Virus record (IMG/VR): IMGVR_UViG_3300046733_000629
From: a virus
Lineage: Duplodnaviria > Caudoviricetes
DNA length: 64,000 nt
Strand: one strand, 5' to 3'
Below the pieces are notes generated by a model. That model made no database searches. It was given only the letters and a program-made list of their open reading frames with translations, and was not told where the DNA came from. Below, one piece after another: positions 29,469 through 53,231 of the stretch. Made by a program: the position numbers and the translations under genes. Positions within the stretch are counted from its first letter, which is position 1, and each line of letters starts with the position of its first letter.

Positions 29469-30365
29469 TTGGATAAGCTAAGGTATAGTGAAGCTTTCTA
29501 TTCGGTACAAGGTGAAGGTAAATTTGTAGGAGTGCCTAGTGTATTCCTACGTACATTTGGTTGTAACTTTCGTTGCATGAACTTTGGAGTAGATACAAAG
29601 AAAGATCGTTGGGAACAACATGCAGAAGGTAACAGGTATAATGCAGAAGTAAAAGGTTTGCTTGATGCAGGTGTACATAAACAAGAAATTGAATTTGAAC
29701 AGTTACCTATTGTACATACAGGTTGTGATACTTATGCAAGTATCTATCCTGAATTTAAACATTTTAATAAACAAGCTACAATTGATGAAGTTGTAGAACA
29801 TCTTCTATCGTTAACACCTAATGGTAAGTGGGTACAAGACAATGGGCAAGATGTACATCTTATTTTAACAGGCGGCGAACCATTGCTTGCTTGGCAAAGA
29901 TTATATATTGATCTTTTTAACCACCCACGTATGAAGGATTTAAAAAATGTTACATTTGAAACAAACACTACACAAAAATTACATGCAGATTTTGCAGAGT
30001 ATCTCAACAATCAAGACAGAATCAAAGTCACTTGGAGTTGTTCCCCAAAACTTAGTGTTAGCGGAGAACGTTGGGAAGATGCTATTAAACCTAGTGTGGC
30101 TAATGAATATATTAGTGTTAACGATAGTGACATGTATCTTAAGTTTGTTGTCGCTAGTGAAGATGATTTTAACGAAGTCAAAAAAGCTGTTAGTGCTTAT
30201 CAGAGTTCCGGGGTACAATGTCCAGTATATCTTATGCCGCTTGGCGGACGTAGTGAAGAATACTCCCTTAACGTTAAAGACGTGGCTGAAGCGTGTATGG
30301 CAGAAGGTTGGAGGTTCACACCAAGACTCCACATCAGTCTCTTCGGAAACGCCTGGGGAACATAA
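29469..30365 (+). CDS. queE: 7-carboxy-7-deazaguanine synthase (radical SAM)
   Basis: EAFYSVQGEG, VFLRTFGCNFRC, GCDT, LTGGEPL, FETN, SPKL, PRLH; TTG start with SD aggag. Confidence 0.93.
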   Translation: MDKLRYSEAFYSVQGEGKFVGVPSVFLRTFGCNFRCMNFGVDTKKDRWEQHAEGNRYNAEVKGLLDAGVHKQEIEFEQLPIVHTGCDTYASIYPEFKHFNKQATIDEVVEHLLSLTPNGKWVQDNGQDVHLILTGGEPLLAWQRLYIDLFNHPRMKDLKNVTFETNTTQKLHADFAEYLNNQDRIKVTWSCSPKLSVSGERWEDAIKPSVANEYISVNDSDMYLKFVVASEDDFNEVKKAVSAYQSSGVQCPVYLMPLGGRSEEYSLNVKDVAEACMAEGWRFTPRLHISLFGNAWGT

Positions 30366-30402
30366 ACTTAATGAAGGCTTAGAGTTTGACACAGGTGAAG
30401 AT

Positions 30403-30513
30403 ATGCTTCTAAGTTTACGAGACAAGTATATAGAAAAAAATAAAGAGTATAACAAAAAAGTCAATAAGAATAAAGAAGTTGACGAAGATGCAATTAGAAA
30501 AGCAGGATGGTAA
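30403..30513 (+). CDS. Very small hypothetical protein (36 aa)
   Basis: SD aggtga before ATG 30403; fills the gap after queE. Confidence 0.4.
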   Translation: MLLSLRDKYIEKNKEYNKKVNKNKEVDEDAIRKAGW

Positions 30514-30516
30514 ATT

Positions 30517-30720
30517 ATGCAAGATCCAAAAATTAAAAAACTAGTAACTACATTTGAATCTGATTTAGATAAAATTAATAAATCATGGAATGCATTGCAA
30601 AAGTCAGGTGTGTATGTACGTATGGAAATACGAGGCAATCATACATACGATGATCCAAAATGGCTTGAAGCAAATCAAATTACAGAAGAAGTGAGTTACA
30701 AGAAAAGTATTAAAGAATGA
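30517..30720 (+). CDS. Hypothetical protein
   Basis: 67-aa ORF coupled to sufE. Confidence 0.6.
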   Translation: MQDPKIKKLVTTFESDLDKINKSWNALQKSGVYVRMEIRGNHTYDDPKWLEANQITEEVSYKKSIKE

Positions 30721-31109
30721 AAATAAACAAATGGTCAGAAGATCTAGGTTTATTAGAAGGTCAAGAAAGACTAATGTATCTGGTTGACTTGGCAAGAAAT
30801 GCAACAACATTACCTAAAGAACTACGTACAGACGACAGACTAATAGGCGGGTGTATGAGTAAGATATGGGTAGATGTTGGCGTAAAAGAAAATATAGTGC
30901 ATGTATATTATGATAGTGACGCTATGATTACAAAAGGAATTACAAGCATAGTTTGTGATTGCTTTTCAGACATGCCAGTTGAAGATGCAAAAAAGATAAA
31001 GTCCGAGGACTTCGAAGGATTAGGTATACAGCAGTTACTGACTCCTCAAAGGCGAAATGGCCTAGGAAGTTTAATTGGAACAATTATAGATAAGGTAAGC
31101 AGAATATGA
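30717..31109 (+). CDS. sufE: SufE-family Fe-S sulfur-transfer protein
   Basis: IGGCMSKIWV (active Cys), DSDAMITKGI, LTPQRRNGL. Confidence 0.88.
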   Translation: MKINKWSEDLGLLEGQERLMYLVDLARNATTLPKELRTDDRLIGGCMSKIWVDVGVKENIVHVYYDSDAMITKGITSIVCDCFSDMPVEDAKKIKSEDFEGLGIQQLLTPQRRNGLGSLIGTIIDKVSRI

Positions 31110-32203
31110 AGCAAGGCAATTATATTTTTACAAGCGAAAGTGTAAGTAGAGGGCACCCAGATAAGGTGTCAGATCAAATTAGTGATGCACTAGTTGATGC
31201 AGGACTAAAAAACGGCGACGAGACAACTCGTGTAGCAGTTGAAACACTTGTAACCACTAACCATGTAACGGTAGCGGGTGAGGTAAAAAACTTTAACGTA
31301 AGCAATGATGAGGTAAAACAAATCATTCGTGATAAAGTTAAAGAGATTGGATATGAACAAGATGGATTCCATTGGGATAATTTAAACATCTATAACGAAA
31401 TTCATTCCCAATCAGGAGATATTGGATTAGGAACAGACAACTTTGGTGCAGGTGACCAAGGTATTATGTTTGGTTATGCATGCACAGATAACGATGCAAT
31501 GCTACCAGCACCTATTCATTACTCACATGAAATTCTAAAACGTTTAGATGCAATGAGAGCAGAAGGATATGAATTTTTATTACCAGATGCTAAGTCACAA
31601 GTAAGTGTTCAATACGATGGCGGTAAGGTAAAACGTATTGATCAAATTGTTGTGTCACATCAACACAAAGAAGGATTTCAACATAGCATTAAGGCACCTA
31701 TTAAAGATGCCGCAGAAGAAGTATTAGGAGATTTAATTGATAAAGAAACTGTATGGCATATCAATCCTACTGGTAATTTTGTTATTGGTGGACCCGATGG
31801 AGACACAGGTCTCACAGGCAGAAAGATTATTGTTGATACTTATGGTGGTTTTGCTCCCCATGGCGGCGGCGCATTTAGTGGAAAAGATCCTACCAAAGTA
31901 GACCGTTCAGCGGCATATATGGCACGTTGGTTAGCAAAGAATGTAGTAGCAGATAACATGGCTGATTGGTGTAGTATTCAACTTAGCTATGCAATTGGTG
32001 TAAAAGAGCCTACTAGCATTTACGTTGATAGTGATGGACACAATAGAAGTATTCAAAAGTTTATTGAAGATAATATTGATCTAACACCAAAAGCGATCAT
32101 TGACAGATTTGATTTATTCAAGTATACTAAGTATAGTGAAAATTGTATTTACGGACACTTTGGTAATAAAGATGTTCCGTGGGAACAGATTGGATGGAAA
32201 TAG
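31106..32203 (+). CDS. metK: S-adenosylmethionine synthetase
   Basis: FTSESVSRGHPDK, GAGDQG, PDAKSQV, GGPDGDTGLTGRKII, GGGAFSGKDPTKVDRS. Confidence 0.97.
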   Translation: MKQGNYIFTSESVSRGHPDKVSDQISDALVDAGLKNGDETTRVAVETLVTTNHVTVAGEVKNFNVSNDEVKQIIRDKVKEIGYEQDGFHWDNLNIYNEIHSQSGDIGLGTDNFGAGDQGIMFGYACTDNDAMLPAPIHYSHEILKRLDAMRAEGYEFLLPDAKSQVSVQYDGGKVKRIDQIVVSHQHKEGFQHSIKAPIKDAAEEVLGDLIDKETVWHINPTGNFVIGGPDGDTGLTGRKIIVDTYGGFAPHGGGAFSGKDPTKVDRSAAYMARWLAKNVVADNMADWCSIQLSYAIGVKEPTSIYVDSDGHNRSIQKFIEDNIDLTPKAIIDRFDLFKYTKYSENCIYGHFGNKDVPWEQIGWK

Positions 32204-32211
32204 GAGGAAAT

Positions 32212-32481
32212 ATGATGGGTTGGTGGAACAAACTAGTACAACGTAAAAAAGCCGAAGAAGTAAGTGCTAAAGATAAAGCTACTGCTAAAGGCGAACCTTA
32301 TGTAAAAGTACTAGAAGTTAAGTTTGATAAAGACAAACCAGGTGATGGTTACTTTGAATTAGAATGGAATCAAATATTTGTAAAACAATTACTTGAAGCA
32401 GGCTATTCAGGTGCCGATGAAAATGAAATAGTTGATGCATGGTTTACCGGACTTTGCAGAACAATTGCAGACGAACAGTAA
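32212..32481 (+). CDS. Hypothetical phage protein
   Basis: SD aggagg; EPYVKVL...YFELEWN...VDAWF. Confidence 0.75.
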   Translation: MMGWWNKLVQRKKAEEVSAKDKATAKGEPYVKVLEVKFDKDKPGDGYFELEWNQIFVKQLLEAGYSGADENEIVDAWFTGLCRTIADEQ

Positions 32482-32484
32482 TAC

Positions 32485-32513
32485 TTGACATTCCATTCGT
32501 GGTGTGTTACAAT
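32485..32513 (+). promoter_or_regulatory. sigma70 promoter with extended -10
   Basis: TTGACA-17-TACAAT with TG at 32505-32506. Confidence 0.85.
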
Positions 32514-32539
32514 ATAAACTTAATAATTACAGGATCTTT

Positions 32540-33541
32540 ATGATGAGTTATATACTAGTAGACGCGGCTAATATGTTTTTCCGTGCTAGGCATGTAGTAC
32601 AACGTGGTGCAGATATGTACACAAAAATTGGTATGAGTTATCATATCATGTTTAACAGTATTAATAAAGTATGGCGAGAGCAAAATGGTACACATGTTGT
32701 ACTATGCTTGGAAGGCCGTAGTTGGCGTAAAGACGCATATGAACCTTACAAACGTAATAGGTCTGTTGCACGTGAAGCACTTAATGATAAAGATGCAGAA
32801 GAAGATCGTGCATTTTGGGAAGCCTTTGATGAGCTTAAAACATTCTTTGAGAAACGTACAAATGTAACTGTATTACAACATGGCGAATGTGAAGCAGATG
32901 ACTTTATTGCACGTTGGATACAGAATCATCCCGATGACAAGCATTGCATTGTAAGCAGTGATAGTGACTTTTATCAGTTACTTGCTCCTAATGTTAATCA
33001 GTACAATGGTATTACAGGACAACTTATTACAACTGAAGGCATCTTTAATGATAAGGGTAAACCTGTTATTGATAAGAAAACTAAAGAGCCTAAAGAAATA
33101 GGTGACCCACAGTGGTTGTTGTTTGAGAAGTGTATACGAGGCGACACTAGTGACAATGTGTTTAGTGCATGTCCAGGTGCTCGTAAGAAAGGCACTAAGA
33201 ACAAAGTAGGTATGTTAGAAGCATTTGCAGATAAAGATACTAAAGGTTATAATTGGAATAACTTTATGCTACAACGTTGGGTAGATCATGAGAACGTTGA
33301 ACATCGTGTGTTAGAAGATTACGAACGTAATAGACAAATTATTGATCTCACTATGCAACCCGATCATATTAAAACAAAGCTAGATGAAGCTATTGTAGAA
33401 CAAGTACAAAAAGAACAGAAGTCACAAGTAGGTATACACTTTATGAAGTTCTGTGGTAAATGGGATATGCAAAAGATTGTAGACAAAGCACAAGATCATT
33501 CTAATTATCTCAATAGGAGTTATGCAAGTGCCAAGGCCTAG
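32540..33541 (+). CDS. rnh: T4-type RNase H / 5'-3' exonuclease (FEN-like)
   Basis: ILVDAANMFFR, CEADDFIA, VSSDSDFYQL, GDTSDNV. Confidence 0.9.
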   Translation: MMSYILVDAANMFFRARHVVQRGADMYTKIGMSYHIMFNSINKVWREQNGTHVVLCLEGRSWRKDAYEPYKRNRSVAREALNDKDAEEDRAFWEAFDELKTFFEKRTNVTVLQHGECEADDFIARWIQNHPDDKHCIVSSDSDFYQLLAPNVNQYNGITGQLITTEGIFNDKGKPVIDKKTKEPKEIGDPQWLLFEKCIRGDTSDNVFSACPGARKKGTKNKVGMLEAFADKDTKGYNWNNFMLQRWVDHENVEHRVLEDYERNRQIIDLTMQPDHIKTKLDEAIVEQVQKEQKSQVGIHFMKFCGKWDMQKIVDKAQDHSNYLNRSYASAKA

Positions 33542-34262
33542 AGCATACGTTTTTGATGTAGATGGTACACTTACTGTAAGTAGAACTCTAATGGATCCAG
33601 AATTCAAAGAGTTCTTTACAAAATTCATAGAATATAATAAAGTATATATTGTAACAGGTAGTGACTATTCTAAAACATTAGAACAACTAGGCGAAGATAC
33701 AATGCATGCAGTAGAACGTTCATATAATTGCAGTGGAAATAGTGTATGGGAAAATGGTATTAACGTACATAATAACGAATGGAAGTTAGATGAAAAGCCT
33801 TGGAAGTATTTAGAATCTAAATTAATCCATAGTCACTTTGAACCAAAGACAGGATGGCATTTTGATGAACGACCAGGACTATTGAATTTTAGTATACTAG
33901 GTAGAAATGCAAAACCTCATCAAAGAGCAATGTATGAAGAGTTTGATATGAAACATAAAGAACGTGAATACATTGCATCTGAATTTAATTACCACTTTCA
34001 AAAAGAATATAAAATTGTTGCACAAGTTGCAGGTGCAACAGGTTTAGATATTATGCCTATAGGAAAAGACAAAAGGCAAATCTTAAAAGACTTTGACGAT
34101 ATGCATGTTACCTTCTTTGGTGACATGATGCAACCCGGAGGCAATGACGCTCCACTTAAAAATGCAATCACATCTAGGAACAATACTTCAGATAAAGTTA
34201 TTCAAGTAACTGATTGGCAACACACATACAATGAACTAAAGGAGATTACAAATGGTAATTGA
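33522..34262 (+). CDS. HAD-IIB phosphomannomutase-like enzyme
   Basis: FDVDGTLTVSR, VTGSD, NFSILGR, FFGD...GGND. Confidence 0.85.
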   Translation: MQVPRPRAYVFDVDGTLTVSRTLMDPEFKEFFTKFIEYNKVYIVTGSDYSKTLEQLGEDTMHAVERSYNCSGNSVWENGINVHNNEWKLDEKPWKYLESKLIHSHFEPKTGWHFDERPGLLNFSILGRNAKPHQRAMYEEFDMKHKEREYIASEFNYHFQKEYKIVAQVAGATGLDIMPIGKDKRQILKDFDDMHVTFFGDMMQPGGNDAPLKNAITSRNNTSDKVIQVTDWQHTYNELKEITNGN

Positions 34263-34518
34263 ACGAGAAGAACTACAAGCACTACTTCAAGAAAAGGTTA
34301 TGGAAGTTACCTTTACTAAAATTAATGGCGATAAACGTATCATGGAATGTACATTGCAAGCATCAGTTTTGCCACCAGCAAAAAAAGATGAACCAATTAC
34401 ACAGAAGAAAGTACGTGCAATTAATCCAGAAGTTATGAGTGTATGGGATACAAATGCAAATGGCTTTAGAAGTTTCCGTATGGCAAATATTTTGGAAGTA
34501 AAAGAAGTAACTGCATAA
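34252..34518 (+). CDS. Small SH3-like / WYL_2 protein
   Basis: VTFTKINGDKRIMECTL...VWD...GFRSFR. Confidence 0.7.
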   Translation: MVIEREELQALLQEKVMEVTFTKINGDKRIMECTLQASVLPPAKKDEPITQKKVRAINPEVMSVWDTNANGFRSFRMANILEVKEVTA

Positions 34519-34964
34519 TGTCATTAAAGATTAAAGAAATTATAAAAGATAAGTTTTGGATTGTAGAAGGACAGTATGGAAAGGCTGGAACACTACGAAA
34601 ACTTGATGATGGCTATGAATTCTTTGATCAGAATAATAACACAAAACAGCTATTAGATAGCCTTAAGAGCTTCAAACAAGCTAATACAGCGCCTATTACT
34701 GGTTCAGTGCAAGTATACAAGGGTCTTCCTACAAACACCGTAGAATTATACCCTGTTGAGCACGACACAATGCCATTGTTTAAGAAATCACTAAATGCTA
34801 AAACTACGTTTGTAGCAGGTTACTATATTTTAAAATATGAAGGAATGGGGTGGCAACATGCGTTCTGTCCTAAACTAGAAACAGTTGAAAAATATGAGAC
34901 AAGAGGTCCATATTTTACAGAATGGGATATGAACATAAATTTAAAGAAGGCGAGGAAAGAATGA
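34518..34964 (+). CDS. Hypothetical phage protein
   Basis: 148-aa coupled ORF; AGYYIL...WQHAFCPKL. Confidence 0.7.
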   Translation: MSLKIKEIIKDKFWIVEGQYGKAGTLRKLDDGYEFFDQNNNTKQLLDSLKSFKQANTAPITGSVQVYKGLPTNTVELYPVEHDTMPLFKKSLNAKTTFVAGYYILKYEGMGWQHAFCPKLETVEKYETRGPYFTEWDMNINLKKARKE

Positions 34965-35383
34965 AAATATTACAATATATTTTAATTGGTACATGCTGTC
35001 TTGCGTGGGTAGCATATGCTAAAGCACAAACAATTAACCCAGATGATATGTTAAACAATGATAATGGTACTATAGAAGCTCCGGCACCCAAAGTACCTGA
35101 ATCACAGCCAAAACTATCAAAAGAATGGGTAACACTAAGTCGTGGAGTACTATGTAATTCAATTGGTATGGTACGTGAGATGTTAAAAACTATGCGAGGA
35201 CAGACTACATGGGCCGCGGCGGCAAATCAAATGCAACCAGGTGATCCTTTTAATGCATTAATTATTGTTAGAAATCCAGAAACAAGGTCGTATTCAGTAA
35301 TACTAATGAGTACAGACAACAACATAGCATGTATTGTTTCAACAGGTATAGGTTTAGAACTGTTAGATAACGATCAAAACTAA
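34961..35383 (+). CDS. Exported hypothetical protein
   Basis: SD gagg before ATG 34961; signal-peptide-like N-terminus ending AKA. Confidence 0.65.
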   Translation: MKILQYILIGTCCLAWVAYAKAQTINPDDMLNNDNGTIEAPAPKVPESQPKLSKEWVTLSRGVLCNSIGMVREMLKTMRGQTTWAAAANQMQPGDPFNALIIVRNPETRSYSVILMSTDNNIACIVSTGIGLELLDNDQN

Positions 35384-35423
35384 GTTTCTAAAAGCCATTA
35401 AGTATAGTTTTTTCTTCGATATG

Positions 35424-35431
35424 TATAAATA
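35424..35431 (+). promoter_or_regulatory. T4-type late promoter TATAAATA
   Basis: Exact T4 late consensus, intergenic, 23 nt before ATG 35455. Confidence 0.7.
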
Positions 35432-35454
35432 CACATATAGGAGAAACAATAATA

Positions 35455-35757
35455 ATGGCAAGACCAAAACCCAACATTATACTTGATCAAGTTGATAAGA
35501 GTTATAATAGTGAACAGATACTAGAAGCAGATGCAATATACGCAGTATATTACGAAAACAAACCAATAAACCTAAGGACAATGAATACACTAGTAAATTA
35601 TCCAGGTCCAAAGTATAAGAAGGTAAGTTTCTCAAATAGCGGGCATGCATTTAATTTATCGGATAGACTAAACAAAAAGTTTAATACAAATAAATTTAAT
35701 GTGGTAAAATTGATAGATGGTGAAACAGTCACAAGAGATTCAAAAAATTCAAACTAA
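35455..35757 (+). CDS. Hypothetical phage protein
   Basis: SD aggag; MARPKP...PGPKYKKVSFSN.GHA. Confidence 0.75.
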   Translation: MARPKPNIILDQVDKSYNSEQILEADAIYAVYYENKPINLRTMNTLVNYPGPKYKKVSFSNSGHAFNLSDRLNKKFNTNKFNVVKLIDGETVTRDSKNSN

Positions 35758-36034
35758 AATTATAGATTTGATTAAAATTGAGTTGACACCAAAAATAGTA
35801 TTTAAAAACTCACATACCTTACGGTTAACAAAAACAGGTGAACGTGTGTTAAGCAAGCTATACGACAGTTATTCATTTGACCCACCAAAGTTAAATGGAC
35901 ATAATTTAATTAATTTATTAAGAAAAATGAGATATCCGTATTACATTGATAAGAAGAAGCTAGTTCTATTTACTGAACAAGATTCGTTTCTTGCAAAATT
36001 AGCCGGAGCACAAGGATGGTTAGATGGCAAATAG
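35717..36034 (+). CDS. Hypothetical protein
   Basis: 105-aa ORF; PYYIDKKKLVLF. Confidence 0.6.
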   Translation: MVKQSQEIQKIQTKIIDLIKIELTPKIVFKNSHTLRLTKTGERVLSKLYDSYSFDPPKLNGHNLINLLRKMRYPYYIDKKKLVLFTEQDSFLAKLAGAQGWLDGK

Positions 36035-36233
36035 AATAAATGACTTTGATATACCAGAGTTAATATCAGTACACTGTACTGACAATGATCAAGATGTAGA
36101 AGTACAATACCTTTCACATCATAACAATACAATTAAAACAAGTTTACAAGGTATGAGATTAAACTTTGTACATTTAAAAAGGAACATTTACGTTGCTAAT
36201 TACTTAGGCCGCGAATTTGTAATGAAACTATGA
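36024..36233 (+). CDS. Hypothetical protein
   Basis: 69-aa coupled ORF. Confidence 0.6.
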   Translation: MANRINDFDIPELISVHCTDNDQDVEVQYLSHHNNTIKTSLQGMRLNFVHLKRNIYVANYLGREFVMKL

Positions 36234-36532
36234 AATTAGATTTACACGGAAATACAGTACATGCAGGCTGGAAAGTATTTACAGAACATGTAGCAGAATG
36301 TTATTTTAACAATATAAAAACAACAGAAATTATTACAGGACATGGCAAGATTGCTAAAGAGATTGAGTCCTGGGTACATGGAAATAGACATTGTACTGAA
36401 ATTCAACCTCACCCACAAAACACAGGGTCTTACTATGTAAAAATACGTAAGAACAAATTAAAGCAGAAACCTCAAAAAGTCAATACAAGTGTAGATTTAT
36501 CTCCACTATTAAAGAAATTTAATTCCTATTGA
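36230..36532 (+). CDS. Stand-alone Smr-domain protein
   Basis: LDLHG...EIITGHG...N.G. Confidence 0.8.
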   Translation: MKLDLHGNTVHAGWKVFTEHVAECYFNNIKTTEIITGHGKIAKEIESWVHGNRHCTEIQPHPQNTGSYYVKIRKNKLKQKPQKVNTSVDLSPLLKKFNSY

Positions 36533-36557
36533 CAGTATGTACAAACTCGTATATTAT
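36529..36557 (+). promoter_or_regulatory. sigma70 promoter
   Basis: TTGACA-17-TATTAT; its TGA is the Smr stop codon. Confidence 0.8.
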
Positions 36558-37053: not shown

Positions 37054-37719
37054 ATGTCAGTAAAGCTAGTAAGCTACACAACTCCATCTAATGAGTTCCA
37101 CGATAAGGGATTAGAAAATGTGCAAGACTTAGTTGCATTCTGTGCAAAAGTATCAAACCCTGCATCACAAATTAATAAAGAAACAAGTGAGAAGCTTATT
37201 AAGTATTTAATTAAGCACCAACATTGGAGTCCACTTGAGATGGCAAACGCTGTTTTAGAAATTGAAACTACCAGAGACATTGCACATCAAATTGTAAGAC
37301 ATAGAAGTTTTGCATTCCAAGAATTTAGTCAACGTTATGCAAACCCAAATGAAATGGGTGACATGTTTGTAATACGTGAAGCACGATTGCAAGATACTAA
37401 GAACAGACAGAACAGTGTAGAAGTTGATAGCGAATCAGATATTCATTATGCTTGGGCTTCTAAACAACAAGAAGTAATTGACAAAGCAAAAGAAGCATAC
37501 GATTGGGCGATAAATAATGGTATAGCCAAAGAACAAGCTAGAGCAGTATTACCAGAAGGAAATACAAAGACACGATTGTACATGAATGGTACAATTCGTA
37601 GTTGGGTACATTACATTGAATTACGAAGTGCTAATGGTACGCAAAAAGAACATATGGAGATTGCGATTGCTTGTGCTAAAGTAATAGCACAAATATTTCC
37701 AATCGCCAAGGAGTTGTAA
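37054..37719 (+). CDS. thyX: FAD-dependent thymidylate synthase
   Basis: HWSPLE, RHRSFAFQEFSQRY, EQARAVLP, Q.EH. Confidence 0.95.
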   Translation: MSVKLVSYTTPSNEFHDKGLENVQDLVAFCAKVSNPASQINKETSEKLIKYLIKHQHWSPLEMANAVLEIETTRDIAHQIVRHRSFAFQEFSQRYANPNEMGDMFVIREARLQDTKNRQNSVEVDSESDIHYAWASKQQEVIDKAKEAYDWAINNGIAKEQARAVLPEGNTKTRLYMNGTIRSWVHYIELRSANGTQKEHMEIAIACAKVIAQIFPIAKEL

Positions 37720-38462
37720 TGAGAGTAAACAAAAAGATTGTAGCTGATTTAGCAAACTTTATCAAAATGCGTTATAATATTAGTGTAACAGAATTTGAAG
37801 AAACATACCCAGAACTATTTAAAACATTTATGAGAATGCAATTTTGGTTAGATGAAGTAACATTATCTAGATACTTTGGACCTAATCCAAATGCAGAAGA
37901 AGAAGGTACCTATTGGGTACAGCAATTAAAATGGGATACACGTAGAACTGGAAAACAGTTACTTGAAAAGATTAGAGACTTGCAAGATAATTACGAAGAC
38001 CCAATGAAGATTATTGATGTTGGCTGTGGTGAGAACGAGTGGAAAACACATTTAGGTGCTAGAGTAACAGGAATAGATCCACACCATCCAAATGCAGATT
38101 TTAAAATAGGCATCAATGAATATGCACAAGATCATTCAGATGAGTTTGATGTTGTGTTAGCACTAGGAAGTATTAACTTTGGCGATCAAAAAGAAATAGA
38201 AAGACAAGTAGCGAATGTAGTTAAGTTATGCAAATCCGGCGGCAAGATATTTTGGCGTTGTAATCCAGGCATTACACACGATAATCCACAAGCAAAATGG
38301 GTAGACTTTTTTGCTTGGTCAGAAGAGTTTTTGCGTGACATGGCAGAAAAAACTGGATGTACTATAGACGATTTTGATTGGGATCATCAATCAGATGAAG
38401 ATCCACGTTGGGGTAATCGACTATATTCTGAATGGACAAAAAATCCATTTAACACACTATAA
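37719..38462 (+). CDS. Class I SAM-dependent methyltransferase
   Basis: IIDVGCG, VTGID, FDVVLALGSI, LCKSGG. Confidence 0.8.
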   Translation: MRVNKKIVADLANFIKMRYNISVTEFEETYPELFKTFMRMQFWLDEVTLSRYFGPNPNAEEEGTYWVQQLKWDTRRTGKQLLEKIRDLQDNYEDPMKIIDVGCGENEWKTHLGARVTGIDPHHPNADFKIGINEYAQDHSDEFDVVLALGSINFGDQKEIERQVANVVKLCKSGGKIFWRCNPGITHDNPQAKWVDFFAWSEEFLRDMAEKTGCTIDDFDWDHQSDEDPRWGNRLYSEWTKNPFNTL

Positions 38463-45974: not shown

Positions 45975-46205
45975 ATGGCTAAAGAAGAAGCTAAAAATAC
46001 TGAAGTTGCATTGTCAATTCAAGACATTGTTCTTTCAGCTAACATTATTGATCTCGCTACACAACGTGGAGCCTTTAAAGCGGCAGAAGCAGGTCAAGTT
46101 GGTGCATGTTTTGAAAAGCTAGTTGCTTTTATCAAAGCTAATACACCAGAATCAGAAGAAAATAAAGAGGCGACAGCAACTAAAGCTGAGTCTCCAAAGG
46201 AGTAA
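45975..46205 (+). CDS. Hypothetical phage protein
   Basis: SD aggag; IIDLATQRGAFKA.E...VG. Confidence 0.75.
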   Translation: MAKEEAKNTEVALSIQDIVLSANIIDLATQRGAFKAAEAGQVGACFEKLVAFIKANTPESEENKEATATKAESPKE

Positions 46206-46209
46206 ACTT

Positions 46210-46845
46210 ATGTCATCAATGAATACTAAACATGTTGGAAAACTATCCAACACAGGAAAAAAATGTGTAGTTGTCTTTAGAGAACTACCAGACGATCCTA
46301 GCAATTGTCTAGTTGTAGATACGGATGCACTTCCAGATTGGATGCATGATGATATCATTAATGCAGTAGAAGCACCAGGTGCTCAAGCATCACATAACTT
46401 CTACGAGTATGCAGAACGTACTGTTCTTTCAGATGGTACTAACATGCTACAATCTCTTCATTCAACAGGTAAGCTACAAAAACAGCCTACAAATAATGTT
46501 GTACTAACACCTAACAACGAAGTTGCAGTAGGTCTTGAAGAAATTAATAAACTTGTTAGAGAGCAAACTGATGGTAAAGACGTAGTAGCACCACCAGCAG
46601 ACGAACGTCCAATGGTAGGTAAAGATACTACATCAGCTGAAGCACCAGTTATTACTGAAGCATCAGCACCAACATCAACACCAGATACACTTGACCCAGA
46701 TACTATGGCCAAGAATCTATTAGCTCAAGCTAAAACGTTTGAACAAGAAGCGAAAAACCTAAAGTCGCAAGCATACGAAATGGCTCCAGGTTTAAAACCA
46801 GGACCAAAAAAAGCTAGTAAAAAAGAAGCTATAGCTTCAGAGTAA
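46210..46845 (+). CDS. Hypothetical phage protein
   Basis: ATG at 46210; KHVGKL..TGKKCVVVFRELP...CLVVDTDALP. Confidence 0.75.
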   Translation: MSSMNTKHVGKLSNTGKKCVVVFRELPDDPSNCLVVDTDALPDWMHDDIINAVEAPGAQASHNFYEYAERTVLSDGTNMLQSLHSTGKLQKQPTNNVVLTPNNEVAVGLEEINKLVREQTDGKDVVAPPADERPMVGKDTTSAEAPVITEASAPTSTPDTLDPDTMAKNLLAQAKTFEQEAKNLKSQAYEMAPGLKPGPKKASKKEAIASE

Positions 46846-46859
46846 AGTAAGGGGCTATA

Positions 46860-47153
46860 ATGCCAATTGAGAGAAAAGACAGGTCCTTCGATCTGATCTT
46901 TGATCAAGTATCAATGGACCATATTCCGGCTGAATACATAAAGGAGATTATGGTTGATTTAGGTACTGGAGAAAGGATCACGTTGACTAAAGATGATTTA
47001 TTAATGATTAAAAATAAGTCAGCAGATGATATCATTGCCGCACTAACGGTTGACTCAATGTCTAACATTAGTTTGAAGCTTGACTATAGTGCAATTAAAT
47101 CTGATGTACTACGTGGAGTGACAGGATTTTTAGGACAACATTTTGACAAATAG
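46860..47153 (+). CDS. Hypothetical protein
   Basis: 97-aa ORF. Confidence 0.65.
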   Translation: MPIERKDRSFDLIFDQVSMDHIPAEYIKEIMVDLGTGERITLTKDDLLMIKNKSADDIIAALTVDSMSNISLKLDYSAIKSDVLRGVTGFLGQHFDK

Positions 47154-47817
47154 TAATAGTAATATCTGGCTATGCGGTATACCAGGATCTAGATGGAGCG
47201 GAATTGATATACAATTGCGTTCTGTCTTACCTTCTGATCGTTCAGATGAAACACCAGATAGAACACAATACCACAGAGCGTTTGATCCAAATGACCCTAA
47301 CAATGGGCATCGTGGTAGCTATTGGGGCCCTGGTATGGGCTGTGGCGAAGACTGGGTAGACTTTAACTTTTTAACAAAACATAAATTACAAGACGATATC
47401 AACAATGTATTTTCTGGAGAAGGTTATCGTATTATTAAAAGTCATTTCTTTGCAAGGCATTTTAACTTAGATTTTATATGGAATAACTTTCCAGGTGATA
47501 AAATCATACTAGTTTATAGAGAACCACAAAAAAGTTTTGCTTGGTGGAGTGAAGTTATGTGCTTTGATGAAACACATTATCCAGATTACCGTCCAGGCTA
47601 TAAAAACTACGATAGAATGTGGGAAATACTATGGCAAGAAAGTTCTAAGATTACAGACTTTGCACTTAGAAAGAATTTAAATTTCCACACCTTTGATCTT
47701 AATCTATTTAACGAATGGGAAGGATTTGACTTTGACACCGCACAACATTTCAATGGGATAAATACTGATAAGCATAAAGATGTTTATATAGCATCTGCTA
47801 CAATCCCGGAGAAGTAA
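47143..47817 (+). CDS. Sulfotransferase-like / P-loop-related hypothetical protein
   Basis: WLCGIPGSRWS, IIKSH, IILVYREP (pattern typical of sulfotransferase folds). Confidence 0.5.
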   Translation: MTNSNSNIWLCGIPGSRWSGIDIQLRSVLPSDRSDETPDRTQYHRAFDPNDPNNGHRGSYWGPGMGCGEDWVDFNFLTKHKLQDDINNVFSGEGYRIIKSHFFARHFNLDFIWNNFPGDKIILVYREPQKSFAWWSEVMCFDETHYPDYRPGYKNYDRMWEILWQESSKITDFALRKNLNFHTFDLNLFNEWEGFDFDTAQHFNGINTDKHKDVYIASATIPEK

Positions 47818-48522
47818 ATGACATCACCCTTTAAAACGCCTTGGCACTTTGACAAATTTAGAAAAGATGAAGAAGGCGAATACGTAAAGATTGTAGGAAT
47901 CTTAGATGTAGATACAGTTTCAGACATTGTTAAGGCTCGTAGCAAGACTATGCAAAATCAACCTTACAATGAACAAAGATATGAACATGCCGCTAATAAG
48001 AAAAGCGATAATCATATTGAAGAAGATAAAGAAAACCCAGATGGCAAACCAGATGCTACAATGTTTAGAAAAATAAACTTTGATAAGTATCCAGGAGAGT
48101 TTCCACAATTCACAAAAATAGTAGACTTTTTAGCATTTGATACAAGTGAAAAATTAACTTGTAAATTTAATGATCAATATCCTAATGACCAGCTGATGTG
48201 GCATATTGATAATTTACCAGGTAACCCACGTATGGATCGTGTTATTGGCAATCCAGAATTTAAGAAAGCAAGTGGGAATAAAATTAGATTTTTAATTACA
48301 TTAGAAGATTGGGAACCTGGACAGGTATTTCAGTTTGGTAATAGAGTATACACACAATGGAAAGCTGGTACAATATTTACATGGGAATGGAGTACACTAC
48401 CTCACCTAACATGGAATGGTAGTTGGACTAAAAGACCATGCTTACAATTAACAGGAACTGCAACAGACAAGACTTGGGAAATAGTAAGAAACGGATCAGC
48501 TGATCACACATACAAATTTTAA
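47818..48522 (+). CDS. Fe(II)/2-oxoglutarate oxygenase-like (double-stranded beta-helix) protein
   Basis: WHID (HxD), WEPGQVFQFG, AGTIFTW...PH.TWNG...R. Confidence 0.65.
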   Translation: MTSPFKTPWHFDKFRKDEEGEYVKIVGILDVDTVSDIVKARSKTMQNQPYNEQRYEHAANKKSDNHIEEDKENPDGKPDATMFRKINFDKYPGEFPQFTKIVDFLAFDTSEKLTCKFNDQYPNDQLMWHIDNLPGNPRMDRVIGNPEFKKASGNKIRFLITLEDWEPGQVFQFGNRVYTQWKAGTIFTWEWSTLPHLTWNGSWTKRPCLQLTGTATDKTWEIVRNGSADHTYKF

Positions 48523-48527
48523 TGCAG

Positions 48528-48534
48528 ATAAATA
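48528..48534 (+). promoter_or_regulatory. Late-promoter-like ATAAATA
   Basis: In the 30-nt gap before the radical SAM gene at 48553. Confidence 0.55.
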
Positions 48535-48552
48535 ACATTATAAGGAATAAAC

Positions 48553-49977
48553 ATGGCAGATAATAAACTACCAAGCGATACTTTTTGTATCCTACCTTGG
48601 ATTCACCTTTCAACAAGACCAGACGGCAGTATGCGTGTATGTTGTACGGCTAACGCATCAAGTGTTGGAGCAACCAACGACAAAGAACATGGCGGCAGAG
48701 TTGGTATTGTTAGAACAGAAGATGGAAGACCAGCAAACTTAAATAACAGCGATCTAAATAGTTCGTGGAATAATAGCTATATGAGAAGTGTCAGACAAAT
48801 GATGCTTAAAGGCGATAAGCCTGCTAGTTGTTTAAAATGTTATAAAGAAGAAGATGCAGGACACAGATCAAAAAGACAATGGGAAACAGATTACTGGATT
48901 AAAGACGGTATTGATGTAGAACAATTAGTAAAGGAAACTTACGAAGATGGAAGTACTGATAGTAAATTACGGTATATTGATATCCGTATGGGGACGAAAT
49001 GTCAGTTGGGGTGCGTTATGTGTTCTCCACATGATAGTTCCGGCTGGGTAAAAGATTGGAATAAATTATATCCACAAATTACAAACGAGTCATTAAAAGA
49101 AACTATGACTTGGGAAAACAAAGGTAAAGAATTTGGTGCTAGTTATAATTGGCACAAAGACAATCCTGTATTTTGGGAACAATTTTATGCACAGATTCCA
49201 TATATTAGACAATTATATTTTGCTGGTGGTGAATCAACTGTTATTGAAGAACATTACGATATCTTAGATAAAGTTATTGAAATGGGATATGCACATCAAA
49301 TCGAAGTGCGTTATAATAGTAATGGTATTGAAATTCCAGATAGACTATTAGAGCAGTGGAAACATTTTCAAAAAGTAAGATTCCATTATAGTGTAGATAG
49401 CATTGAAGGTATGAATGATTATATTAGATACCCAAGTGAATGGGAACATAATCTAAAACAGTTTGAACTACTAGATACTAGAACAAGTAATAATGTAGAA
49501 ATTACTATTGCTTGTGCAGTTAATGCATTAAACATTCATTATATTCCAGACTTCCTTAAATGGAAACTACAACATGGATTTAAGAAAACAAACATGTGGC
49601 CTTTTGGTGCAGGTGGTATTAACTATCATTTTGTATATTGGCCAGGACACTTAAATGTTAAAGTGCTACCAGATGAATTCCTAGATAAGACTGAAGCTAA
49701 GTACGAAGAATTTATTGAATGGTGGAAAGAAAATTGGGAACTAGGTGTTCCTAGTTGGCACAAAGGCAAAGTATCATACGAGAAATGGCTAGATGCTAGT
49801 TACGGAATTAAACGACTCAGAGGCATGATTAGTTTTGCCCGTAGTGAAGATTGGAGCAGAAGACTTCCTGAATTCAGAGAATACATTAATAAATTAGATG
49901 AATTAAGAGGCACAGACTTCCGTGCTACCTTCCCTGAAATGGCATATCTTCTCGATGAGCCAGATGAAAAGCTATAG
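48553..49977 (+). CDS. Radical SAM protein with N-terminal twitch-like domain (subfamily B)
   Basis: FCILPW...CC...C.KC, GTKCQLGCVMC, YFAGGE. Confidence 0.92.
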   Translation: MADNKLPSDTFCILPWIHLSTRPDGSMRVCCTANASSVGATNDKEHGGRVGIVRTEDGRPANLNNSDLNSSWNNSYMRSVRQMMLKGDKPASCLKCYKEEDAGHRSKRQWETDYWIKDGIDVEQLVKETYEDGSTDSKLRYIDIRMGTKCQLGCVMCSPHDSSGWVKDWNKLYPQITNESLKETMTWENKGKEFGASYNWHKDNPVFWEQFYAQIPYIRQLYFAGGESTVIEEHYDILDKVIEMGYAHQIEVRYNSNGIEIPDRLLEQWKHFQKVRFHYSVDSIEGMNDYIRYPSEWEHNLKQFELLDTRTSNNVEITIACAVNALNIHYIPDFLKWKLQHGFKKTNMWPFGAGGINYHFVYWPGHLNVKVLPDEFLDKTEAKYEEFIEWWKENWELGVPSWHKGKVSYEKWLDASYGIKRLRGMISFARSEDWSRRLPEFREYINKLDELRGTDFRATFPEMAYLLDEPDEKL

Positions 49978-50176
49978 CAATATAATACCAAACGTATCCT
50001 GGAAAGAAGTAAACTTTTTGTTCTTTTGTGTTAAAGGACATTTAATTCCAACAGAATATACAAACGAAGATATTAGAAGTATGTACGATAGTTACTTTAA
50101 AAGACTATGGGGCAACAACGAAAGAATGATTTATTGCAGAGATGAGTTTGAAGAATTATGGGGTATGAAAAACTAA
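49964..50176 (+). CDS. Small hypothetical protein between radical SAM genes
   Basis: 70 aa from ATG 49964; contains LWGNNE. Confidence 0.6.
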   Translation: MKSYSNIIPNVSWKEVNFLFFCVKGHLIPTEYTNEDIRSMYDSYFKRLWGNNERMIYCRDEFEELWGMKN

Positions 50177-50180
50177 ACAT

Positions 50181-51431
50181 ATGGAACTTAGACCCAAAAC
50201 TGTTAGAGAAAAAATAGAAGAACTTCCAACAAAAAGTTATTGTGCATATGCATGGTCAGGTGCAGCAATAGGACCAACCGGTGATGTATTTCCATGTTGT
50301 AGATGGCAAGGACCTCACACTCAAGGTGACCCTAACGTTCCAAACATTAAAGATGGGTTAGTAGCAGCCAGAGAAGGAAAATATTTTTCTAGAATAAGAG
50401 AGCAAATGATCAATGGAGAATATCCTTCTGGTTGTGCTAAATGCTGGAGAATAGAAAAGAAAAGATTAGAAGAAGAAGATGCAGGAATTCCTAGCCCACA
50501 GGATAGTGTACCTAGAGTACAAATTGGTCACAGAATAAAAGTAACATCAACTAAACCTCAAACTGAAAAGATTAGATACTTAGAAACAGGTGTTAGTAAC
50601 TTGTGTAATATGGCATGTGTAATGTGTGGACCATTAGCAAGTAGTACAATATTTTCAATAAAAAATCCAGGTGTAAAAGTTCCCAAAGGCTTTCACCAAG
50701 ATAATACTAACATTGATGATGACTTATCAGAATTACGTTATTTAAAATTTGTAGGTGGTGAGCCTATGTTAGAAAAGAAACATGATGACTTACTAGAAAT
50801 GGTTATTAACCAAAACGCTGATCCTTCTCAACTAGAAATGGAATACCATACTAATGCAAGTGTATTTCCTAGTGAACGTGTTATAGCATGTTGGAAGAAA
50901 ATAAAACTAGTAAGAATTATTTTTAGTTTAGATGGAGTAGGTGACAAAGTTAAACTTCAAAGGCCAGGAAAATATGTTTGGCAAGATTTAGAAGATACTG
51001 TAGATAAGTATGTAGCTATAACTAATGAAGTCAATATAGAATTTTCATCCAATACAGTATTAACTTCATTGAATATAGGACAAGGAATTGATACAGTAAA
51101 ATGGCTTTATAAAAAAGTAGGTAAATGTACGTTAGGTTGGTTTAATGTTAACCCAGAAGTTATGCCAAAGGTATCATCAAAGTATTTAAATCATAGAAAC
51201 CTAAGTAAAGAAACTAAAGAAAGAATTAAAAAAGAAATAGCTGATTTTAAACAATCAGAACACCCGGCATTAAAGACACCAATTGCTAAAATTTTAGATA
51301 TTATTCTACATCACATAGATGAGCATGGTGACTTAGACGAAGACTTGACCAGAGAATTGATTTTAGAAAAACATACTAATAAAGATAGATGGAAACACTT
51401 TGGTGAAGAATTAAAAAATTTAGATATATAG
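50181..51431 (+). CDS. Radical SAM protein (subfamily B)
   Basis: YCAYAW...PCC...CAKC, SNLCNMACVMC, KFVGGEP. Confidence 0.92.
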   Translation: MELRPKTVREKIEELPTKSYCAYAWSGAAIGPTGDVFPCCRWQGPHTQGDPNVPNIKDGLVAAREGKYFSRIREQMINGEYPSGCAKCWRIEKKRLEEEDAGIPSPQDSVPRVQIGHRIKVTSTKPQTEKIRYLETGVSNLCNMACVMCGPLASSTIFSIKNPGVKVPKGFHQDNTNIDDDLSELRYLKFVGGEPMLEKKHDDLLEMVINQNADPSQLEMEYHTNASVFPSERVIACWKKIKLVRIIFSLDGVGDKVKLQRPGKYVWQDLEDTVDKYVAITNEVNIEFSSNTVLTSLNIGQGIDTVKWLYKKVGKCTLGWFNVNPEVMPKVSSKYLNHRNLSKETKERIKKEIADFKQSEHPALKTPIAKILDIILHHIDEHGDLDEDLTRELILEKHTNKDRWKHFGEELKNLDI

Positions 51432-51439
51432 GAAAGAAC

Positions 51440-51976
51440 ATGAAATACATTTTAGTTGCTCTCAAAGAAGAGCTACCAGACCATGATTTACCTTCATCAG
51501 AATTCCAAGTATGGTATACTGGTGTTGGAAAAGTAAACGCATCTATATTTGCTACGTTAGCATGTATACAAAAAGACTGTGAAGCTGTTATTAATTACGG
51601 AACAGCAGGTACATTAAAACCTGAACTAGCCGGACAGTTACTACAAATAGGTACAGTTAGACAACGTGATATGGATGCAAGACCACAAGCAGAATTAGGT
51701 GTTACACCTTTTGATAATTCAGGATTTGATGGTGATATAGAACTTAGTAACAGTGCATACATATTAAGCACAGGTGATAACTTTGTAACGTCAGCACCAG
51801 AACTTGAAAGTGATTGTGTTGATATGGAAGCATATGCAATTGCCAAAGTATGTAAACACTTTCAAAAGCCATTTATATGTTATAAATATATTAGTGATTT
51901 AGCTGATGAGAATGCAGCAAAGACTTGGGTCGAAAATCAATCTAAAGGAGCTGATGCTTTTATAGCAATGACATAA
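51440..51976 (+). CDS. 5'-methylthioadenosine/SAH (5'-deoxyadenosine) nucleosidase
   Basis: TGVGKVNA, INYGTAG, STGDNFV, VDMEAYAIA, KYISD.AD. Confidence 0.88.
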   Translation: MKYILVALKEELPDHDLPSSEFQVWYTGVGKVNASIFATLACIQKDCEAVINYGTAGTLKPELAGQLLQIGTVRQRDMDARPQAELGVTPFDNSGFDGDIELSNSAYILSTGDNFVTSAPELESDCVDMEAYAIAKVCKHFQKPFICYKYISDLADENAAKTWVENQSKGADAFIAMT

Positions 51977-51977
51977 T

Positions 51978-53231
51978 ATGAGTGGATTCTGTGCATTACC
52001 ATTTGTTCAATATAGTACATACAACGGAGGTCGTTTTAGATTATGTTGTATGGCTAAAGAACCTACTGAACTTGTTAATCAAGAGAAGCTAGGTATTGAT
52101 GGTACATGGAATCACAAATATATAAAAGAAGTAAGACGTAAAATGACTGCTGGTGAGAAACTACCAGAGTGTATTGAATGTCATCATTTAGAGCGTAATG
52201 GAATAATGAGTTCACGCCAATGGGAAAACAAAGTATGGGCAGATGTTATTGATGATATAGTAGCAGATGCATCAGCTAATGATTGGAAAGTTGATCAGCC
52301 ATTACAATTTGATTTTAGACTTGGTAACTTATGCAATTTGCAATGCCAGATGTGCAACAAAGAAGCATCTCATTTAGTGAGTGTGGAACGTGCGGCAATG
52401 GTACAAAGCGGACTCGGAGCGAACCATCCTGATTGGGACGGCAATATTGCAAATAAAAAAGAAGCATTACTTCAACCAGGGATTGAATGGGAAAGTTTTG
52501 AAAGAATGTTACCTTATGCTCGTAAGATAAAACTGATAGGTGGCGAACCAACAGTAGCACAAGATATGTTTAAGTTGTTAGATATTGCAACAGAAAGTGG
52601 ACATGCTGAACATATTGAATTAAGTTTTTACACAAACATAACTAACATGCAAGACAAATGGCTTAATCAACTAGCTAAGTTTGAGAAAGTAATTGTTAAC
52701 TGTTCGTTAGAAGGAATGGGAGATATGAATGATTATTTACGTCCTCCATCTAAATGGGCAAGTGTTTGGAAGAATTTTGATAAATTAGTACAGTTTGCTG
52801 ATACTAAAGCAGGTAAGCGTATTAAGGTACGTGTTACTACAGTAAACCAAATGACCAACGCATTGCATATAACTAAGTTTTGGAAGTATATGCATGATTA
52901 CCAGATGACTAGTAATAGAGGCATTGGCATGAGTACCAATCAGTTAGTAGAGCCGGCATACTATAGCATGGCAAATGCTCCTGAATGGTTAAAGAAAGAA
53001 CAACGTGAACAGATTTTGGAATTTCTCAAAAGCATTGGCAATAGTCCGCATTTTGAGCAATATGAAGAACCTCTTATGGAGGTTGTTAATTTTAGTTTGG
53101 ATACTGAGCATAAGTATGATGCTGACATCATGCAACAGTATGTTCAAATCACAGAAAACTACGACAGATTCAGACAACACGATATTACCAAAGTGTCGCC
53201 CGAATTTGAAAGAATTAAAAGAGACCTCTGA
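51978..53231 (+). CDS. Radical SAM protein (subfamily B)
   Basis: FCALPF...CC...C.EC, GNLCNLQCQMC, KLIGGEP. Confidence 0.92.
   Translation: MSGFCALPFVQYSTYNGGRFRLCCMAKEPTELVNQEKLGIDGTWNHKYIKEVRRKMTAGEKLPECIECHHLERNGIMSSRQWENKVWADVIDDIVADASANDWKVDQPLQFDFRLGNLCNLQCQMCNKEASHLVSVERAAMVQSGLGANHPDWDGNIANKKEALLQPGIEWESFERMLPYARKIKLIGGEPTVAQDMFKLLDIATESGHAEHIELSFYTNITNMQDKWLNQLAKFEKVIVNCSLEGMGDMNDYLRPPSKWASVWKNFDKLVQFADTKAGKRIKVRVTTVNQMTNALHITKFWKYMHDYQMTSNRGIGMSTNQLVEPAYYSMANAPEWLKKEQREQILEFLKSIGNSPHFEQYEEPLMEVVNFSLDTEHKYDADIMQQYVQITENYDRFRQHDITKVSPEFERIKRDL

Follow-up and report, generated by a model that had tools for sequence, protein, structure and literature searches.

Radical S-adenosylmethionine (SAM) enzymes are inhibited by 5'-deoxyadenosine, and this by-product is removed by nucleosidases of the Pfs type (PMC8102628, PMC10986504). 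A 183-kb T4-like marine viral genome carries genes for an A-type carrier, a PaaD/DUF59 protein and ClpP together with 12 radical-SAM genes, and its authors proposed that viruses use their iron-sulfur (Fe-S) assembly proteins for Fe-S enzymes of their own (Nishimura et al., 2017, mSphere, PMC5332604). Other studies have described metK and mtnN on viral contigs as organosulfur auxiliary genes (Kieft et al., bioRxiv 10.1101/2021.01.05.425418), and sufE without sufS in oxygen-minimum-zone viromes (PMC8940887). Here we analyse 64,000 nucleotides of IMG/VR virus record IMGVR_UViG_3300046733_000629 (the window, to whose full length all coordinates refer), which encodes MetK, a SufE-type sulfur acceptor and a nucleosidase of the 5'-methylthioadenosine (MTA)/S-adenosylhomocysteine (SAH)/5'-deoxyadenosine type. 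An initial annotation had counted 11 radical-SAM enzymes in the window, which agrees with the ten open reading frames (ORFs) that we find with a CxxxCxxC motif and matches to radical-SAM/SPASM models, plus one QueE-like gene; it had read MetK, SufE and the nucleosidase as an assembled kit for supply, cofactor and waste removal. We find this idea partly supported: right in spirit for the nucleosidase, plausible genome-wide, and overstated as an assembled supply chain.

Of the three support genes, only the nucleosidase is physically built into the radical-SAM cluster. It lies between two radical-SAM genes, as first annotated, beginning 8 bases past the gene at 50181-51431 and stopping 1 base ahead of that at 51978-53231. 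Across the clade of the window, the order N-terminal-twitch radical-SAM gene, nucleosidase, N-terminal-twitch radical-SAM gene is kept in 11 IMG/VR contigs and three other assemblies (55-81% identity), with variation in the genes in between: the one at 50181-51431 is missing in some relatives and its slot taken by other genes (DoxX and a small ORF in L266, two unknown genes in L265). Similar arrangements recur beyond this clade. A 43%-identical nucleosidase lies among about seven radical-SAM genes in G095, a contig that was found as a ThyX-selected control; another of 43% identity follows four or five N-twitch-like radical-SAM genes in L119/L121, with MetK 1.5 kb downstream; in L009 a 227-residue radical-SAM gene overlaps the nucleosidase stop; and in G040, a complete genome of 342.6 kb, a different, full-length MTA/SAH nucleosidase (MTAN; 196.9 bits, cut-off 169) sits two genes from an N-twitch radical-SAM gene. 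Of 37 phage loci, 18 have a radical-SAM ORF no more than 4 kb from the nucleosidase, compared with 0 of 79 bacterial records. On a maximum-likelihood tree, in which L249 and L119 are long branches whose exact placement is unsure, this adjacency needs four changes, at least three of them forced by well-supported branches. We conclude that linkage of the nucleosidase to radical-SAM clusters has arisen repeatedly, in about four lineages of phages and in phages only.

On the tree, the main group of phage nucleosidases is joined by SAR116/Puniceispirillaceae records (support 96), and short contigs from Granulosicoccaceae metagenome-assembled genomes (MAGs), which may be mis-binned phage DNA, fall within the phage group; these placements possibly hint at a donor or host lineage. 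Marine metatranscriptome contigs from two samples of one study are identical to 49654-51868, 49754-51734 and 50818-51693 and bridge the radical-SAM/nucleosidase junction, while others cover 32158-32699. These data are assembled contigs that leave large parts of 31990-51989 uncovered, with DNA carry-over possible; they are a hint of transcription across the junction and prove neither transcription nor a single transcript. Around both the QueE-SufE-MetK and the nucleosidase loci, scans for promoters and terminators gave sites no commoner than in shuffled sequence.

As a protein, the nucleosidase has PRK05634 ("nucleosidase") as its best NCBIfam match, at 92.5 bits against a cut-off of 129. It falls below all curated MTAN cut-offs (PRK05584, 72 versus 169 bits; TIGR01704, 55 versus 73.8), and so we describe it as MTAN-like rather than as a curated MtnN equivalog. 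Its AlphaFold model has a predicted local distance difference test score (pLDDT) of 94.7, and in a fold search all of the top 50 PDB matches were MTANs or futalosine/aminodeoxyfutalosine nucleosidases, with query template-modelling scores (TM-scores) of 0.72-0.82; a sequence search of the PDB gave the same kinds of enzyme, one unnamed plant chain and nothing else. Alignment with E. coli MTAN pairs VDMEAYAIAKVC with VEMEATAIAHVC and ISDLADE with ISDVADQ, placing E11, M129-E130 and D153 at E. coli Glu12, Met173-Glu174 and Asp197; none of these residues varies in 30 homologues.

More than 2,100 relatives of the nucleosidase, 97-312 residues long, occur in metagenomes, and deposited phages give 13 matches among 50,697 records, mostly metagenomic or contaminant. 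Bacteria have a protein of equal length and 45-60% identity: it occurs in SAR116, SAR86, Pelagibacteraceae, Fonsibacter, Litoricola, SAR202 and others, the sources being genomes as well as single-cell or MAG assemblies and including megabase contigs. The short form is thus not phage-specific; it is the normal form in SAR11, SAR86 and SAR116. Its commonest bacterial neighbour is a phosphoribosyltransferase (9 of 35 loci), and the two that were checked are adenine phosphoribosyltransferase, Apt (198 bits, cut-off 125), which makes adenine the likely product of the mini-nucleosidase.

In the futalosine route to menaquinone, MqnE adds the 5'-deoxyadenosyl group of SAM, and MTAN/MqnB cuts adenine off aminodeoxyfutalosine. 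By analogy, the phage nucleosidase might be a pathway step that removes adenine from an adenosylated intermediate of the flanking radical-SAM enzyme, with the next such enzyme continuing. The gene order would fit, since all members of the clade have the nucleosidase flanked by two radical-SAM genes and other lineages have it beside such genes, and the fold matches include the aminodeoxyfutalosine nucleosidases of H. pylori and C. jejuni, the MTAN family being known in such a role. We nevertheless consider a pathway step improbable: the NCBIfam futalosine hydrolase model matches weakly, its 40.5 bits lying far below the cut-off of 124.7; the protein shares its invariant residues, and 45-60% identity, with the ordinary cellular mini-nucleosidase of SAR116, SAR86, SAR11 and others; sister phage copies occur in contexts without radical-SAM genes; and G040 has a standard full-length MTAN at the equivalent position.

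Table 1. Features of the window, with positions, strand and the matches or motifs that define them (the cut-off of NF033640 is 170 bits).
Feature	Position	Strand	Evidence or remark
Radical-SAM/SPASM, outside the main cluster	4087..5235	-	CxxxCxxC at residue 17; SPASM 28 bits
Two radical-SAM genes	9408-10505; 10453-11670	+	second is of N-terminal-twitch type
FolE (GTP cyclohydrolase I) and xanthine/guanine-type phosphoribosyltransferase	19288..20482	+	PF01227 129.7 bits; PF00156 42.6 bits
Small radical-SAM gene, 225 residues	25803..26480	+	PF04055 35.4 bits; CxxxCxxC at residue 15
QueE-like radical-SAM protein (7-carboxy-7-deazaguanine synthase family)	29469..30365	+	split motif C32-x3-C36 ... 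C86
67-residue ORF	30517..30720	+	stop overlaps SufE start (ATGA)
SufE-type sulfur acceptor	30717..31109	+	PF02657 94.3 bits, gathering cut-off 27
MetK, S-adenosylmethionine synthetase	31106..32203	+	TIGR01034 429.3 bits, curated cut-off 309.4
Weak methyltransferase-like gene	37719..38462	+	Methyltransf_23 25.3 bits, below cut-off 27
Radical-SAM, N-terminal twitch/SPASM, first of the cluster	48553..49977	+	NF033640 413 bits; CxxxCxxC at residue 150
N-twitch radical-SAM, 5' of the nucleosidase	50181..51431	+	NF033640 208 bits; CxxxCxxC at residue 142
"Mini" MTA/SAH/5'-deoxyadenosine-type nucleosidase, 178 residues	51440..51976	+	PF01048 (PNP_UDP_1) 63 bits
N-twitch radical-SAM, 3' of the nucleosidase	51978..53231	+	NF033640 302 bits; CxxxCxxC at residue 119
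Three further radical-SAM genes of the cluster	57996-58676, 60406-61467, 61467-62717	+	interspersed genes of unknown function

MetK, SufE and the nucleosidase all look functional, judged by their sequences (Table 1). MetK exceeds the cut-offs of all three of its Pfam domains (N, M and C), and its GAGDQG motif, TGRKIIVDTYGG-type loop and SGKDPTKVDRS-type loop, which we take to bind substrate and metal, show no variation among 50 distinct phage homologues. Close relatives of MetK number at least 413 in IMG/VR, with 79-92% identity for the best 80. SufE matches the NCBIfam SufE/CsdE equivalogs below cut-off (65 versus 160 bits and 48 versus 136), and its Cys46, in the context GGCMSKIW, is invariant in 42 distinct phage homologues; from the motif context we take this residue to be Cys51 of E. 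coli SufE, the persulfide-accepting cysteine. It is found in 56 IMG/VR loci at 51-76% identity, with two weak matches among the 50,697 deposited phage records.

Beyond the window, the same genome encodes Fe-S assembly and adenine salvage proteins. The window is 99.99% identical to the Joint Genome Institute contig L257 across 11.3 kb and 100% identical to the beginning of L260, part of a 258.6-kb contig of the same genome that extends downstream, of which about 40 kb was read. The radical-SAM cluster runs on past the window end with nine more genes on this identical contig, and the genome total is at least 20 radical-SAM enzymes. Some 28-31 kb beyond the window end, on the opposite strand of the same phage (L263, 6240-15465), lies an operon in the order QueD, a 326-residue ORF, a SufT/DUF59-like protein, FdxA, three small ORFs, Nfu, two small ORFs, Apt, A-type carrier, MazG and RpiB, with ClpP and phosphoribosyl pyrophosphate (PRPP) synthetase further along. 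FdxA (160.7 versus 135 bits), Apt (161.2 versus 125) and the A-type carrier (71.3 versus 58.8) all exceed their cut-offs. The relative G002 has the order Nfu, IscS (722 bits versus 548; L253, 8247-9509), a 319-residue ORF, Apt and A-type carrier, IscS and the 319-residue ORF thus filling the slot that holds two small ORFs in the window genome; where G002 has IscS, G015 has an N-twitch radical-SAM gene. In all three genomes Apt lies among Fe-S assembly genes.

The initial annotation had suggested searching the rest of the genome for sufS, iscA and ferredoxin: an A-type carrier and FdxA are there, but no cysteine desulfurase was seen in the window or the roughly 40 kb read downstream. The gene at 62707-63645 was rejected as SufS because a weak class I/II aminotransferase match stands alone, with none in NCBIfam. 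IscS, which G002 encodes, is not the classical partner of SufE, and no consistent pattern of SufE-IscS pairing was found across relatives.

We lean, with slight confidence, towards the reading that the three genes, acquired and placed independently, serve as optional boosters for SAM- and Fe-S-dependent reactions of the phage itself. The source is an uncultured marine T4-related jumbo phage, whose MetK, SufE and mini-nucleosidase genes are cellular housekeeping genes carried as intact copies. Its radical-SAM enzymes would split SAM into methionine and 5'-deoxyadenosine; the nucleosidase, presumably co-translated with the flanking radical-SAM genes, would hydrolyse 5'-deoxyadenosine, and probably MTA and SAH too, to adenine; the phage adenine phosphoribosyltransferase and PRPP synthetase could return adenine to AMP; and MetK would rebuild SAM from ATP and methionine. 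SufE may accept persulfide sulfur from a cysteine desulfurase, here probably the host's (one relative has a phage IscS), and together with the phage Nfu, A-type carrier and SufT-like protein it would load clusters, for which FdxA may give electrons. We infer the substrates, the flux and the phage radical-SAM enzymes as beneficiaries.

Several observations weigh against this reading, the failure to see a desulfurase gene in the part of the genome that was read among them. The 40 ThyX-selected control contigs (2.6 Mb in total) have SufE in 0/40, MetK in 0/40 and the nucleosidase in 1/40 (G095), and yet 17 of them carry radical-SAM genes and nine hold 6-12, all such counts being lower bounds because the fast pre-filter overlooked the 227-residue ORF of L009 (10537-11220; Pfam 38 bits). 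Searches of the contigs for SufE, MetK and the nucleosidase succeeded on positive controls. All three genes are absent from G113 (117 kb, complete, 4 radical-SAM matches) and from G109 (268 kb, 75% complete, 9 matches), G081 (300 kb, 86% complete, 8 matches) has SufE only, and in G040 (15 matches) the three are present but far apart. SufE is a sporadic insert that even close relatives may have or lack: about a dozen contigs from the window's clade carry it between QueE and MetK, others have it among unrelated genes, and in G015, whose MetK is nearest to that of the window (92%), both MetK and the nucleosidase occur but no SufE was found on 110 kb. Even the nucleosidase is not always in such company. 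No radical-SAM gene is seen on 20 of 32 nucleosidase contigs (fragments), and contigs selected by it are not enriched in these genes (11/23 versus 17/40 controls); another phage lineage has the order clamp loader, thymidine kinase, nucleosidase, dihydrofolate reductase (DHFR), and L014 (9173-10552) has a YhhQ/Vut_1-type transporter, of the queuosine-precursor transporter family, directly 5' of the mini-nucleosidase, no radical-SAM genes having been found near it in that lineage. Most of the compared contigs are fragments, 5-40% of a genome, and the contig statistics ignore shared ancestry.

Inheritance of MetK, SufE and the nucleosidase as one module is thus not supported. The helpers were acquired separately, placed separately and are dispensable in related radical-SAM-rich phages. 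They behave as a loose, optional set rather than a new system, MetK and SufE being common marine-phage helper genes. For the kit idea, the intact genes, the Fe-S and Apt genes and the linkage of the nucleosidase hold up; the co-inherited module does not, and there are radical-SAM-rich controls without the genes. The high-flux, stoichiometric modification that was first proposed is conjectural, as is a specificity of the nucleosidase for 5'-deoxyadenosine.

A general auxiliary role would explain part of this pattern. On such an account the three genes are unrelated, their closeness to radical-SAM genes reflecting shared ancestry and dense packing, with MetK and the nucleosidase sustaining the host's methionine/SAM cycle and purine salvage (for methylation, polyamines and nucleotides) and SufE serving host Fe-S homeostasis. 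Viral metK and mtnN are widespread in many virus types without radical-SAM context (bioRxiv 10.1101/2021.01.05.425418), viral sufE occurs without sufS in ocean viromes (PMC8940887), and metK is on 134 deposited phage records, mostly Streptococcus prophages. The nucleosidase of other phages sits with thymidine kinase/DHFR or the YhhQ-type transporter, its bacterial orthologues are housekeeping genes beside apt, and the radical-SAM-rich controls lacking all three genes fit equally. We judge this account unlikely, though to be taken seriously, as the nucleosidase has joined radical-SAM clusters in about four lineages and in two protein forms, against none of 79 in bacteria, as MetK in L119/L121 lies 1.5 kb from the nucleosidase within the radical-SAM cluster, and as Apt is embedded among Fe-S assembly genes in the window genome and two relatives. 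MetK and SufE contigs are, moreover, enriched for radical-SAM genes. Among MetK contigs of at least 40 kb, 26/30 hold radical-SAM genes, at 7.6 matches per 100 kb, versus 15/40 and 2.9 per 100 kb in the ThyX controls at the same threshold, which does not count QueE (Fisher test, 6e-5, or 2e-4 without evident near-duplicates; ancestry uncorrected); among SufE contigs of at least 30 kb the figure is 23/29, versus 17/40 controls (Fisher 0.003, likewise uncorrected).

The surroundings of MetK bear on what it is for. In the best 80 loci MetK is followed 3' by a 100-residue ORF and then a flap endonuclease, a further point against our favoured reading; its 5' neighbour is FolE-QueE (commonest) or a homologue of the window gene at 13113-13862. 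We note this homologue upstream of MetK as a deazaguanine-cluster gene. The complete genome G040 also has the FolE-QueE arrangement beside MetK. Because these neighbours are constant in the 80 loci, MetK belongs to a conserved backbone block and is not a member of the radical-SAM cluster. MetK, and perhaps SufE, might then serve mainly 7-deazaguanine DNA modification or counter-defence: it is FolE and QueE, rather than the large radical-SAM cluster, that are conserved beside them, FolE-QueE-MetK is the commonest order among the 80 loci, the complete G040 included, the window's clade has SufE placed precisely in the QueE-MetK interval, and QueE is itself a radical-SAM Fe-S enzyme. QueE, however, reportedly uses SAM catalytically and does not consume it, which tells against the booster reading as well, and a lone enzyme of this kind hardly needs its own SAM synthetase. 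MetK also keeps the 100-residue ORF and flap endonuclease where QueE has been replaced, so that the linkage may be plain synteny, and MetK contigs are radical-SAM-rich well beyond QueE. A main role in 7-deazaguanine chemistry accordingly seems to us very unlikely.

The QueE-like protein is itself divergent. Five NCBIfam QueE models match it, all far below cut-off (best 53.4 bits versus 260), and alignment with the PDB QueE structures 6nhl and 4njg is limited to the N-terminal signature and a core strand. CxxxCxxC is absent from the protein; all of 33 distinct phage homologues (36-100% identity) keep C32, C36 and C86, with the spacing C-x3-C-x(37-49)-C and a variable insert between the second and third cysteines. 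This would be an unusual split radical-SAM motif, provided that the three cysteines bind the cluster. The gene adjoins FolE in most relatives; in the window, FolE and the xanthine/guanine-type phosphoribosyltransferase (PRK09177, 59.9 bits, below cut-off) form the 7-deazaguanine context of QueE and stand outside the support set. The initial annotation had described queE, two small ORFs, sufE and metK as co-oriented and tightly packed. The 67-residue ORF, SufE and MetK do follow QueE in the same orientation, with successive 4-base overlaps (ATGA), and the 67-residue ORF (no match in Pfam or NCBIfam) is the one convincing small ORF; we rejected a second, as the 151-base gap after QueE holds an ATG frame of at most 33 codons.

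Among the radical-SAM genes, five are N-terminal-twitch (NF033640) paralogues with 21-28% mutual identity (10453-11670, 48553-49977, 50181-51431, 51978-53231 and 61467-62717), and that at 4087 is a paralogue of 25803, 57996 and 9408. Where at least two methyltransferase-like genes had been reported, we find the single weak one of Table 1. Three paralogous proteins of about 360-430 residues (53289-54434, 54352-55641 and 59009-60076; 25-41% identity) also lie inside the radical-SAM cluster, and Pfam scans gave no match for them.

The window is AT-rich (GC 32-36%), has nearly all genes on the same strand and includes genes for thymidine kinase, ThyX, flap endonuclease, GTP cyclohydrolase I, sugar-nucleotide enzymes and proteases. 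No close deposited phage relative was found: blastn against deposited phages matched the flap endonuclease only, at about 69% DNA identity to the giant phages CBB, GAP32 and PA5oct. Its syntenic relatives are many uncultured marine IMG/VR contigs. Immediately 5' of the radical-SAM cluster, a MoxR-like AAA ATPase followed by a DUF2201 metallopeptidase/VWA protein (42911-45621) is kept in nearly all relatives at 80-93% identity. There is also an unusual load of degradative enzymes at 21420-24110, 26812-28194, 38544-39836 and 40110-42550, comprising an S8 subtilase (896 residues), an M17 leucyl aminopeptidase (398 bits), a trypsin-like protease with PDZ and two alginate-lyase-like proteins.

Radical-SAM enzymes are costly, demanding Fe-S clusters, reducing power and one SAM per turnover and leaving a poisonous by-product, and a phage with at least 20 of them in small, nutrient-limited marine cells faces a supply problem. 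The genome shows which parts of that supply the phage lineage handles and which are left to the host. Tentatively, and with more doubt than conviction, we raise the possibility that the mini-nucleosidase is a dedicated radical-SAM part in marine jumbo phages, either a recycler specialised for 5'-deoxyadenosine or a pathway step acting on an adenosylated intermediate. As a recycler it would, with the phage Apt, PRPP synthetase and MetK, close a loop from adenine through AMP to SAM and so allow 20 or more radical-SAM enzymes to work in streamlined hosts; on either version there would be a virus-encoded cofactor-recycling or adenosyl-transfer system, of which we found no description. Its recurrent, phage-only placement in radical-SAM clusters offers a cheap, testable handle on an opaque biosynthetic cluster, and the 178-residue enzyme is worth characterising. 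Modestly new, in our view, are the phage-specific integration of an MTAN-type enzyme into radical-SAM clusters and the position of Apt among Fe-S genes.

The phage gene order resembles the order of steps in the futalosine pathway (MqnE, MTAN/MqnB, MqnC), where a radical-SAM enzyme, an adenine-releasing nucleosidase and a second radical-SAM enzyme act in turn; this is an analogy only, and the phage radical-SAM genes, unlike those of the pathway, show no sequence evidence of being MqnE or MqnC. The viral genes described by Kieft et al. and in PMC8940887 belong to the same families as those of the window and are under purifying selection; both studies read them as manipulating host sulfur and methionine metabolism, radical SAM having 0 occurrences in Kieft et al., and among the papers searched we found none linking a phage nucleosidase to 5'-deoxyadenosine removal. 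Closer in content is the 183-kb genome of PMC5332604, which shares the A-type carrier, DUF59 protein and ClpP with the window genome. The Fe-S half of the kit idea was thus already published in 2017 (PMC5332604); that paper leaves SufE, MetK, the nucleosidase and Apt unmentioned and so does not cover the half concerned with SAM supply and the by-product.

The best-described counterpart of the nucleosidase, E. coli Pfs/MtnN (EC 3.2.2.9; PDB 1jys, 1nc1, 1z5n), has the same fold as the phage model (TM-score about 0.8), and equivalents of its Glu12, Met173-Glu174 and Ser196-Asp197 are also present in the phage protein. The phage enzyme is about 55 residues shorter (178 versus 232), has no hairpin following the first strand, is missing part of the lining of the 5'-substituent pocket, and differs in being phage-borne and embedded in a radical-SAM cluster. 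The marine bacterial mini-nucleosidases of the PRK05634 type (SAR116, SAR86, SAR11/Fonsibacter, Litoricola, SAR202) match it in length and invariant residues; unlike the phage gene, theirs lies beside apt or housekeeping genes, with a radical-SAM gene within 4 kb in 0/79. We suggest that the phage gene probably derives from them; SAR116/Puniceispirillaceae records form the clade nearest to it.

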